This document shows, in pieces, positions 24,091 through 28,788 of a stretch of DNA of 37,116 nt. Both the position numbers and the translations under genes were made by a program. Every line of letters begins with the position of its first letter. Position 1 is the first letter of the stretch. Source of the stretch: a virus; the UHGV virus genome UHGV-0272165. The stretch is one strand, 5' to 3'. The notes under the pieces were generated by a model. It ran no database searches, was not told the DNA's origin, and was given only the letters and a program-made list of their open reading frames with translations.

Positions 24091-24381
24091 TCATTGCCTT
24101 ACCTCCATAAGCGCCCTATTAATAAACGCCGTCATTGGATTTGCACATCCCCACCCCGTACCATCTGGATTTCTTTTAATTGGCTCCTTCTTCACTTTGC
24201 GCTTTGCATAAATAACCGTCTTCCACTTACGCTCAACAACACTCAAATGCCCTTGTTTCACCATATGCCTTGCTGCTTGAGCGATTCTGTTATTTGGTAT
24301 TCCGGTGATCAGAGCTAATTCATGTGGGGAGAATTGTTCATGAGTTTTCAGATATTCCAGGATGATTTCTTTTCCAGTCAC
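24091..24381 (-). CDS. Ren-like protein
   Basis: 96 aa; MTGKEIILEYLKTHEQFSPHELALITG... resembles remembered lambda Ren N-terminus; sits directly after the replication genes as in lambda. Confidence 0.65.
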   Translation of the reverse strand: MTGKEIILEYLKTHEQFSPHELALITGIPNNRIAQAARHMVKQGHLSVVERKWKTVIYAKRKVKKEPIKRNPDGTGWGCANPMTAFINRALMEVRQ

Positions 24382-26492: not shown

Positions 26493-26687
26493 CTATTTGT
26501 TTTTCTTGTTGCTTGGGAAAGGACGAACTTCCTCTCCAATCACACTGCCATCAGGCTTTACCGTAACCATGATGTTACGGCCTGCCAGAATGGCCTTGCT
26601 GATAGCGCACTGGATTACACCAAAGTCACTGGCTGCTTTAGCCTGTCCATGGATTTTGGCGTAATCGGCAAGTGTCATTCGAATCAT
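26493..26687 (-). CDS. cro: Cro repressor
   Basis: ...[57 protein letters not shown] resembles lambda Cro; start set to the ATG 6 nt after GGAGA. Confidence 0.85.
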
Positions 26688-26718
26688 ATGCACTCTCCGT
26701 TATTAACCATGAACAAAG

Positions 26719-26758
26719 AATACTACAGGTATTCAAAGCAATCAATACTCAGGGTATT
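26719..26758. promoter_or_regulatory. OR-like operators (two AATAC-N5-GTATT palindromes) with divergent promoters
   Basis: AATACTACAGGTATT (26719-26733) and AATACTCAGGGTATT (26744-26758) between cro and cI; TAGAAT -10-like hexamer ~7 nt before the cI ATG suggests a near-leaderless cI transcript. Confidence 0.5.
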
Positions 26759-26793
26759 TTTAGTTTAAGTACCTTAGCTATTAGAATTAAGCT

Positions 26794-27510
26794 ATGGAAA
26801 ATAAAAAATCACTGACGACAGAACAGCTGGAAGACGCTAAGCGGCTTAAGGCTTTGTATGAGTCAAAAAAGAAAGAATTGGGAATAACCCAATACTCAAT
26901 CGCTGATGAACTGGGTATCACCCAAGGAGCGGTAGGGCATTATCTTAATGGCAGAAATGCGCTAAACGTTGAGGTTGCATCTGGTTTTGCACGATTGTTG
27001 CAAGTCTCAATTGCTGATTTTAGCCAGTCAATTGCTGCCAAGGTTGCAGAACAGGCAGAAAGCCTTAAGAGCGATGCCAACGTAAGGTATGCAGGGGAAT
27101 ACAGAGCAGGAAAGAGGTATCCGGTGTTAAGCAGTATCCAGGCTGGCTCGTGGTGTGAAGCATGCGAACCATACACCATTAAAGACATAGATGTTTGGCT
27201 TGAGTCTGACGCGCATATTCAAGGTAATGCGTTCTGGCTTAAAGTGGAAGGTGATTCAATGACGGCACCGGTTGGATTAAGCATTCCAGAGGGAACATTC
27301 GTTCTTTTCGATACCGGAAGGGAGGCGATCAACGGCAGCTTGGTCATAGCAAAACTTTCTGACTCTAACGAAGCAACATTCAAGAAGCTGATAATCGACG
27401 GCGGAAATAAATACCTCAAGGGACTTAATCCTGCATGGCCTCTCGTGCCAATCAATGGAAACTGCAAGATTATAGGCGTTGCAATTGAGACAAAACTCAG
27501 ACTGGTTTGA
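26794..27510 (+). CDS. cI: CI-type repressor (HTH plus LexA-like S24 peptidase domain)
   Basis: HTH (QYSIADELGITQGAVGHYLNG) and S24 motifs (VEGDSMTAP, FKKL); divergent from cro across the operators. Confidence 0.9.
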   Translation: MENKKSLTTEQLEDAKRLKALYESKKKELGITQYSIADELGITQGAVGHYLNGRNALNVEVASGFARLLQVSIADFSQSIAAKVAEQAESLKSDANVRYAGEYRAGKRYPVLSSIQAGSWCEACEPYTIKDIDVWLESDAHIQGNAFWLKVEGDSMTAPVGLSIPEGTFVLFDTGREAINGSLVIAKLSDSNEATFKKLIIDGGNKYLKGLNPAWPLVPINGNCKIIGVAIETKLRLV

Positions 27511-27527
27511 TCACGCAAGGGGCGAAT

Positions 27528-27896
27528 ATGGTTGGAACCGCTATAGCAAGCTTTTTAGGGATGTTGGCAATATCGACAATTTACTGCTTAGCGCATGCTT
27601 TTATTGCGAAATCTCTATCAGAAAAAATAAGCCAGGCTTGGGCGCATAGATCAGCTCGTTTCATGATTCTGGTGATCATGGCAATACAAGGGATATCTAC
27701 ATTTTTCCTCTATGGATCAAGCTTATACCTATTGTATCAAGGCGCGACATTTACGCCTTACACCAGTGATTACGGAACTCTATACGATGGTAGTGAAGAC
27801 ATCTCTATGGCTTGGATTGTCTTTGGTTTATCTATGGCCGTGTCTGTTGTAGCAGACATCATTAAGGTAATTCTCGTCTTAACCTTCGCTGACTAA
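27528..27896 (+). CDS. Small integral membrane protein (about 3 TM helices) downstream of cI
   Basis: ATG at 27528 with AAGGGG SD, 18 bp after the cI stop, same strand; three hydrophobic segments; clearly lower GC than cI. Confidence 0.6.
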   Translation: MVGTAIASFLGMLAISTIYCLAHAFIAKSLSEKISQAWAHRSARFMILVIMAIQGISTFFLYGSSLYLLYQGATFTPYTSDYGTLYDGSEDISMAWIVFGLSMAVSVVADIIKVILVLTFAD

Positions 27897-27983
27897 CCCA
27901 TAATCCCGGCAGCAATAGCTATCGGGATCCACTTCACATATCCCGCATAAAAAGCACTGAACAAGCAGACACCGAAAAAAATA

Positions 27984-28069
27984 AATATCCTTTGTATTCA
28001 TTTGCTTATCATTATTTCACCAAAAATAAATACCTTGGGTATTTACACAATAAAATACCTACAGTATTC
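27984..28069. promoter_or_regulatory. OL-like operators (AATAC-N5-GTATT palindromes), probable pL region
   Basis: AATACCTTGGGTATT (28030-28044) and AATACCTACAGTATT (28055-28069) share the OR half-sites; weaker third copy AATATCCTTTGTATT (27984-27998). Confidence 0.5.
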
Positions 28070-28116
28070 TTTAGCCATCAGCAGGACGCTGGTAGCCAAA
28101 CGGAACAGATTGGCAG

Positions 28117-28158
28117 GCTCTTTAACATTGATGGGATTGTCCCGCCGAAATGCGGGAA
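28117..28158 (+). promoter_or_regulatory. nutL-like site (boxA GGCTCTTTAACA plus boxB hairpin identical to nutR)
   Basis: Same boxA/boxB as at 26442-26487, reverse complemented, upstream of N. Confidence 0.6.
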
Positions 28159-28515: not shown

Positions 28516-28788
28516 ATGACAGTAGTCATTACATATCTGGCTGACGATAACGCCAGAAATCGCCGCAGAGCACGCAGACAGGCTCAACGTGAACAGGCAA
28601 TGCAAGAACAGCGACTGGCGCGAAAAATTTCGCTAAAGCTCTCTGGTTGCGTCAGAGCAGACAAAGCAGCATCACTCGGAAGCCTTCGCTGCAAGAAGGC
28701 AGATGAATGCAGTGGAAGTATTTGCCTGCCAAACGTAGCTATTTACGCGGCAGGCTACCGGAAATCAAAACAACTGACGGCGAGGTAA
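28516..28788 (+). CDS. N-type antiterminator (P22 gene 24-like)
   Basis: Arg-rich N-terminus (NARNRRRARRQAQREQ) and C-terminal LPNVAIYAAGYRKSKQLTAR matching remembered P22 gp24; follows nutL. Confidence 0.85.
   Translation: MTVVITYLADDNARNRRRARRQAQREQAMQEQRLARKISLKLSGCVRADKAASLGSLRCKKADECSGSICLPNVAIYAAGYRKSKQLTAR

Follow-up and report, generated by a model that had tools for sequence, protein, structure and literature searches.

hkaS, a gene directly downstream of cI in HK620-type immunity modules, encodes a predicted three-helix inner-membrane protein and is a candidate prophage exclusion gene

The cI-hkaS locus

The window analysed here, i.e. the whole stretch of 37,116 nucleotides from the UHGV virus genome UHGV-0272165, amounts to the nearly complete genome of a P22-like lambdoid phage, as judged by the sizes and order of its large ORFs. 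Its immunity region (Table 1) contains an ATG-started ORF of 122 aa with three hydrophobic helices, located on the same strand as cI and upstream of OL and pL. This arrangement, already described in the initial annotation, was confirmed, with 17 nt between the cI stop (ending at 27510) and the ATG. The ORF list begins the gene at an upstream TTG (27507), which gives a protein of 129 aa. Since Salmonella homologues carry an in-frame TAA directly before the ATG, the ATG start is the conserved form.

By its sequence, this ORF can be identified as hkaS of coliphage HK620 (AAK28867.1), whose product is annotated as "unknown". The two HkaS proteins are of equal length and share 94% amino-acid identity, differing by seven conservative substitutions that are swaps of hydrophobic or small residues in or at the edge of helices. 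Furthermore, the gene occupies the same position in HK620, between cI and tIMM/OL. Over the 2.2 kb that extend from cro to N, the window shares 98.6% identity with HK620 and with a dozen further phages. hkaS is also carried by HK630, HK140, mEpX2, HZ41, 611R6, phi296, phi367 and two Stx2c phages. The HK620 record gives the order cI, hkaS, terminator tIMM, OL3-OL2-pL/OL1, nutL and N; the anatomy drawn in the initial annotation reproduces this description, published in 2001.

Table 1. Features of the cI-hkaS region and other elements of the window mentioned in the text
Feature	Position	Strand	Basis and remarks
Ren-like ORF	24091-24381	-	96 aa; located after the replication genes
cro	26493-26693	-	
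OR1-OR2-OR3, overlapping pR (leftward) and the upstream part of pRM	26718-26783		Transferred from the HK620 annotation (~99% identical)
Probable pRM -10 (TAGAAT)	26782-26787	+	Ends 6 nt before the cI ATG; read from sequence
cI repressor	26794-27510	+	238 aa; HTH_3 and Peptidase_S24 domains; equals HK620 cI
Shine-Dalgarno of hkaS (AAGGGG)	27517-27522	+	5 nt 5' of the ATG; read from sequence
hkaS	27528-27896	+	Three-helix predicted inner-membrane protein; ORF, HK620 annotation, PHROGs, AlphaFold
A6 run in hkaS	27622-27627		Corresponds to the run altered in phage HF4s
40-aa Cys-rich ORF	27879-28001	-	Probably not coding
Hairpin after the hkaS stop	27903-27928	+	RNA fold; no U-tract, fails terminator criteria
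"tIMM"	27979-28009	+	HK620 annotation; weak A/U-only hairpin
OL3, OL2, OL1 and pL	28006-28077	+	HK620 annotation and alignment; promoter-scan match at 28042-28070
nutL, with boxB hairpin CCCGCCGAAATGCGGG	28116-28157	+	HK620 annotation and alignment
251-bp pL-N leader segment	28160-28410		Absent from HK620
N antiterminator	28516-28788	+	Pfam N_peptide; first gene past the immunity module, exchangeable

The 17-19 nt gap after cI, the Shine-Dalgarno sequence proper to hkaS and the lack of intervening sites argue for transcription of hkaS from the repressor promoter. In three diverged clades, scanning detected neither a promoter-like nor a terminator-like site between cI and hkaS. An AAGGA-type Shine-Dalgarno sequence is preserved in the Hafnia and Salmonella loci despite a differing spacer sequence. 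Since the TAGAAT hexamer lies 6 nt before the cI ATG, the cI-hkaS mRNA would be leaderless, as in lambda. In a Salmonella locus, TTTAAA-17-TAGAAT passes the scan threshold and ends 7 nt before the cI ATG. The HK620 authors annotated cI-hkaS-tIMM as one unit and, in phage 434, RT-PCR has shown that the pRM transcript extends through hex, the gene that follows cI (PMC3564112). Together with the short gap devoid of sites, the TAGAAT hexamer, the HK620 operon annotation and the 434 precedent suggest that hkaS is read from pRM in the lysogen. During the establishment of lysogeny, it would be read from pRE.

No canonical intrinsic terminator was found 3' of hkaS in the three clades (positions 27897-28045 of the window and the corresponding Salmonella and Hafnia sequences). 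As tIMM is a weak A/U-only hairpin and the stronger hairpin at 27903-27928 has no U-tract, a canonical intrinsic terminator does not account for the end of the cI-hkaS transcript. The pRM transcript could be kept out of pL and N by Rho-dependent termination or by a roadblock of OL-bound repressor.

No second conserved ORF accompanies hkaS before OL: 17 nt separate the gene from cI and OL follows. Some phage records annotate, on the opposite strand between hkaS and OL, a Cys-rich ORF of 40 aa. It was rejected as a gene, having no family match and containing a 1-nt indel in HK620.

Directly after the nutL boxB, the leader between pL and N includes a 251-bp segment of ~57% GC. This segment is present in 8 of the 80 hkaS loci and in 62 of 5426 E. 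coli genomes, where it is almost always single-copy, occupies at most two places per genome and shows diverged alleles (81-90%). It has no Rfam match and no folding signal (z = -0.58), and is more suggestive of an alternative segment of the N leader than of a mobile element.

Predicted structure, family and conservation of HkaS

Hydrophobic segments of HkaS, defined by a Kyte-Doolittle mean over 19 residues above 1.6, span residues 1-27, 42-65 and 91-122. AlphaFold2, run with the small family alignment, gave a model with a mean pLDDT of 89 and a pTM of 0.76, in which helices 2-29, 41-73 and 89-121 are accompanied by a short helix (31-38) and a beta-hairpin (77-86). The first loop (28-44) is basic, with 4-5 Lys/Arg in all clades, and includes a short amphipathic helix. 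The second loop (71-91), a conserved, acidic and Tyr/Gly-rich beta-hairpin, has 3-4 acidic residues and no Lys/Arg, except for one in the Salmonella clade. Because of these loop charges and of the positive-inside rule, HkaS is predicted to have its N-terminus and hairpin in the periplasm and its first loop and C-terminus in the cytoplasm. Residues invariant across all clades include K33, W38, H40, R44, Q54, Y67-F75, Y78 and Y82, as well as G83, Y86, G88, G100, A104, S106, D110 and K113.

The initial annotation had been unable to assign the protein to a known family. This holds for Pfam, NCBIfam, PADLOC and the PDB, none of which gave a match, but the protein already had a name, hkaS, and a family of unknown function in PHROGs, phrog_6534, which it matches over residues 1-122 of 122 (E = 8e-77). 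We ran the profile and structure searches by which that annotation could be checked, and no known functional family fits HkaS. In Pfam, no family matches at E <= 1, including Imm_superinfect and SieB; NCBIfam and PDB sequences gave no match either. Among the defence models of PADLOC-DB v2, the best match was a generic "2TM effector" (E = 1.3, 6.9 bits) and, besides phrog_6534, PHROGs yielded merely three chance-level matches and no Sie family. Searches with the HkaS model returned generic helical bundles, with no informative similarity. HkaS was also rejected as a RexB-like protein (hhalign probability 0.2%) and as a relative of Hex of phage 434 (BLASTP E = 4.3 over 8 residues).

Among 5.8 billion proteins, a word-indexed search retrieved 11 HkaS clusters, with identities of 87-97% in E. 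coli, 80% in Hafnia and 54-59% in Salmonella. A profile built from the alignment of these 11 clusters was scored exhaustively against 1.84 billion 50%-identity representatives and retrieved one true representative and one fragment, besides an artefact. The latter, P0013, was rejected as a relative: its nine matches, all identical and of 7 bits, are to a repeat in a giant YD-repeat protein, and this repetition inflates its E-value. By these searches, HkaS belongs to a small enterobacterial orphan family. The searchable literature yielded no functional study of hkaS, of phages with HK620-type immunity or of membrane proteins encoded downstream of cI.

All 80 viral copies retrieved from IMG/VR are intact and encode 122 aa. 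Full-length copies, 95-99% identical and annotated as "hypothetical protein", are present in 146 of 5426 complete E. coli genomes (~2.7%), including O145, O111 and Stx2c-phage-bearing strains, and none of the 146 is flagged as a pseudogene. The length is exactly 122 aa in the E. coli, Hafnia and Salmonella clades, even at 54-59% identity, and dN/dS between these clades is 0.15-0.2.

Among the 81 sequences of the E. coli clade, 26 protein variants occur for hkaS versus 6 for cI, and pN/pS reaches 0.42 versus 0.042 (Fisher p = 1.4e-5). Hence, in the same set of prophages, the amino-acid sequence changes about ten times faster in hkaS than in the adjacent cI. This weaker selection fits a dispensable accessory gene, whatever its function. 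The excess of change could result from relaxed constraint on lipid-facing residues or from diversifying selection. The three helices account for 17 of the 22 variable codons (5 of them in helix 3), and the changes there are conservative hydrophobic exchanges. Residues 31-41 are invariant and residues 71-91 show two singleton changes. Constraint is thus concentrated in the two loops and in helix 3.

In phage HF4s, hkaS is split by a 1-nt deletion within GAAAAAA. Moreover, cluster P0007 has a frameshifted stretch (residues ~11-32) that ends at the same A6 run, which could be a slippage-prone site or the place of a sequencing error. Phenotypes have been reported for Hf4s lysogens (10.1101/2021.06.09.447823); as the Hf4s copy is frameshifted, they are uninformative on hkaS and were set aside. 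These two frameshifts and the raised nonsynonymous polymorphism are what could be expected if the ORF between cI and OL had arisen by chance or were a remnant undergoing decay. This explanation is hardly credible and is effectively excluded by the conservation data, given the intact viral and full-length E. coli copies, the constant length, the low dN/dS, the conserved Shine-Dalgarno sequence and the confidently predicted fold.

hkaS in the immunity module and in the cI-OL slot

cI lies immediately 5' of hkaS in all 79 evaluable IMG/VR loci, with a gap of 17-19 nt, and directly upstream in the eight homologue loci that were fetched (Salmonella, Hafnia and metagenomes). In the latter, cro and cI are 79-82% and 85-95% identical to those of the window, versus 24-39% for N and 25-53% for cII, and the replication genes belong to different modules. 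The N type of the window is found in 30 of the 80 IMG/VR hkaS loci. Since linkage to cI is strict while N, cII and replication genes vary, hkaS belongs to a cro-cI-hkaS-OL module. This module is carried by P22-like podoviruses (HK620 and the phage of the window), lambda-like siphoviruses (mEpX2, HK630) and Stx phages (phi296, Stx2c phages). Because it spans these three types, the entry route of a possible target cannot be inferred from its carriers.

Comparison with lambda bore out the claim that hkaS lies exactly at the position of rexAB, between the cI stop and OL. The interval between cI and N is a known mosaic hotspot that holds rexAB or bstA (Owen et al., PMC8585504). The slot is empty after cI in P22, HK97, SEN22, ECP1 and Serratia phage OS31. 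In phage 434, it is occupied by hex, downstream of a cI with a C-terminal domain closely related to the window's (52% local identity over the whole repressor, visibly higher over the S24 half). In Enterobacter phage ENT1, the C-terminal domain of cI is 82% identical to that of the window and has the same ...ETKLRLV end. As related repressors precede nothing or different genes, the slot is optional and cassette-like. The statement that hkaS replaces rexAB does not hold in an evolutionary sense: closely related cI genes are followed by nothing, hex, a two-gene cassette or hkaS.

The cassette of ENT1 (L095 2057-2773) is different from hkaS and combines a soluble and a membrane protein in the rexAB position. 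Its first gene encodes a 127-aa Cys-rich protein (CPICG...CKNCG) and its second a protein of 109 aa whose Gly-rich start is followed by a coiled-coil-like middle part and, at the C-terminus, by a hydrophobic anchor. In 434, the product of hex (L013 3127-3531), with the corrected start of the 434 genome record, begins MIRIAALLSILLTTSANSE. The N-terminus of Hex resembles a cleavable signal peptide and is followed by a polar body. A periplasmic Hex would fit awkwardly with the published model, in which the cytoplasmic repressor is shielded from RecA by Hex (PMC3564112).

The characterised occupants of the slot all exclude phages: rexAB in lambda, hex in 434, stk in 933W and bstA in BTP1 (PMC3564112, PMC8585504). 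For instance, rexAB, the 933W kinase gene (stk) and hex are co-transcribed with the repressor and exclude heterologous phages (Shkilnyj et al., PMC3564112). The main argument for a defence role of HkaS lies in these exclusion phenotypes and is purely positional. Hex excludes P22 and is also reported to stabilise lysogeny, lowering spontaneous induction 30-fold (PMC3564112); therefore, the position in the slot does not prove a defence function.

Two further arguments of the initial annotation, a retained Ren-like gene (Ren counteracting Rex in lambda) and a clearly lower GC content, fared less well. The Ren-like ORF does exist. It has the same length as lambda Ren, shares 43% identity with it over the first 58 residues and lies after the replication genes, as lambda ren does. 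The match is confined to the N-terminal winged-helix part, the C-terminal 38 residues being unrelated, and the ORF matches a MarR-type family of PHROGs better (6e-40) than the Ren-like one (E = 3.5e-13). The Ren-Rex logic itself does not stand, as HK620 has hkaS without ren and 434 has ren without rexAB. Furthermore, among the fetched loci that reach the replication genes (L003-L005, L007 and L009), L003 alone has even a distant relative. HK620, 434 and these loci indicate that ren and hkaS assort independently, in different mosaic modules. As for base composition, hkaS is indeed lower in GC (41.2%) than cI (45.2%) and the window (47.1%), but "clearly" is an overstatement and the difference is not diagnostic: hkaS falls at the 8th percentile of 369-bp windows and its neighbours are equally GC-poor (42.2% for the P-like gene, 43.0% for the Ren-like ORF and 41.2% for the ORF after N).

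Possible functions of HkaS and comparison with known systems

By its position, HkaS is a reasonable candidate for exclusion. We tentatively propose, with somewhat less than even confidence, that it is an accessory inner-membrane protein made by the lysogen that blocks genome entry of superinfecting phages. Within the HK620-type immunity module, hkaS would then be an accessory gene (a "moron") that forms a two-gene operon with cI, and its position and anatomy suggest that the product would act at the cytoplasmic membrane, protecting the lysogen against other phages. The step most likely blocked would be the passage of the invading phage's genome through the inner membrane. Contact could be made through the periplasmic hairpin and the polar face of helices 2 and 3 (Q54, S106, D110, K113), the target being the ejection/tape-measure proteins of the invader or a host inner-membrane protein that they need. 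The anatomy would fit such a role, with a near-zero soluble mass, a conserved hairpin where ejection/tape-measure proteins meet the membrane and a polar face within the bilayer.

Many prophage morons affect host physiology. Given that such action is common among them, HkaS might have no defence role and instead tune prophage stability or induction, or the envelope of the lysogen (stress tolerance, transport, colonisation), which we consider rather unlikely. The strict association of hkaS with one type of cI, the invariance of the 31-41 loop in the E. coli clade and the effect reported for Hex on spontaneous induction, from the same slot and after a cI related in its C-terminal domain (PMC3564112), point in this direction. 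However, HkaS is unrelated to Hex and has scarcely any cytoplasmic mass with which to bind the repressor or RecA, and family and domain searches (Pfam, NCBIfam) give no hint of transport or signalling. Moreover, HkaS and cI do not co-vary tightly, since HkaS is merely 59-80% identical to that of the window in homologue loci where cI is 86-95% identical.

It is improbable that HkaS is an abortive-infection effector resembling RexB or SieB, i.e. an oligomer that perturbs the membrane on a phage cue so that the lysogen dies without progeny. The membrane would be opened or perturbed and its potential would collapse. The invariant residues within helices (Q54, S106, D110 and K113) and the small-xxx-small motifs (G3/A7/G11 and G100/A104) could line a pore, and the gene does occupy the rexAB slot. 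The absence of similarity to RexB argues against such an effector, as do the lack of a partner sensor gene, a cytoplasmic part reduced to a loop of ~17 residues and the absence of a convincing match among the PADLOC models of membrane effectors, the best of which is cited above.

Quite doubtful is the proposal that HkaS on its own both senses the phage, through its periplasmic Tyr/Gly/Asp hairpin, and executes exclusion, and would thereby found a new family of minimal membrane immunity proteins, present in about 3% of E. coli genomes, Stx prophages among them. If it were a self-contained defence of this kind, its fast change relative to cI would reflect an arms race.

Immunity proteins of the colicin E1 type are three-helix inner-membrane proteins of ~110-120 aa, and HkaS resembles them in size and number of helices. 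It is nonetheless very unlikely that HkaS is an orphan immunity protein protecting lysogens against a pore-forming, colicin-like bacteriocin. Its probable constitutive expression with cI would suit this function, but Pfam, which covers colicin and microcin immunity families, gives no match to them at E <= 1, nor does NCBIfam; there is no toxin gene nearby and, in the loci examined, hkaS is confined to prophage immunity regions.

The cI-OL region of lambdoid prophages is transcribed in every lysogenic cell, and hkaS has been annotated as "unknown" in this slot since 2001, in ~2.7% of complete E. coli genomes. Exclusion of phages by HkaS would add a very small and easily engineered membrane immunity protein to the catalogue, and would bear on the host range of phages used in therapy and on the superinfection of STEC lysogens. 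In that event, HkaS would be at most an added case of repressor-linked prophage exclusion genes. If it does otherwise, it would provide a counter-example to "guilt by position" in the cI-OL slot.

Among known systems, RexA and RexB of lambda are encoded in the same slot, after cI and before OL, with the same presumed transcription from pRM. However, they are the products of two genes, whereas hkaS is single and lacks a RexA-like sensor. Four helices are reported for RexB versus three predicted for HkaS, and no sequence relationship links the two proteins by hhalign or through any Pfam family at E <= 1. RexB is a small polytopic inner-membrane protein (PMC8585504), as HkaS is predicted to be. 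Hex shares with HkaS its slot behind a cI with a closely related C-terminal domain. It is a protein of 134 aa, polar except for one hydrophobic, signal-peptide-like segment at its N-terminus, whereas HkaS is a predicted integral protein with three helices. BstA of BTP1 and Stk of 933W are also expressed in the lysogen from genes directly 3' of the repressor and provide heterotypic defence (PMC8585504, PMC3564112), but they are large soluble proteins with enzymatic or DNA-associated activity to which HkaS has no similarity (PADLOC models).

In logic, the proposed block of genome entry resembles the action of single small inner-membrane proteins that block DNA entry, such as SieA (PMC10461980) and Imm (PMC11436027). 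P22 SieA, T4 Imm and HK97 gp15 are, as predicted for HkaS, small phage proteins of the inner membrane with little soluble mass, and they block genome entry (PMC10461980, PMC11436027). The likeness is one of logic, and the Pfam, PHROGs and exhaustive profile searches detected no homology. SieA and gp15 are made by the lysogen, as HkaS probably is; their genes are sited elsewhere in their genomes, whereas hkaS lies directly after the repressor gene.
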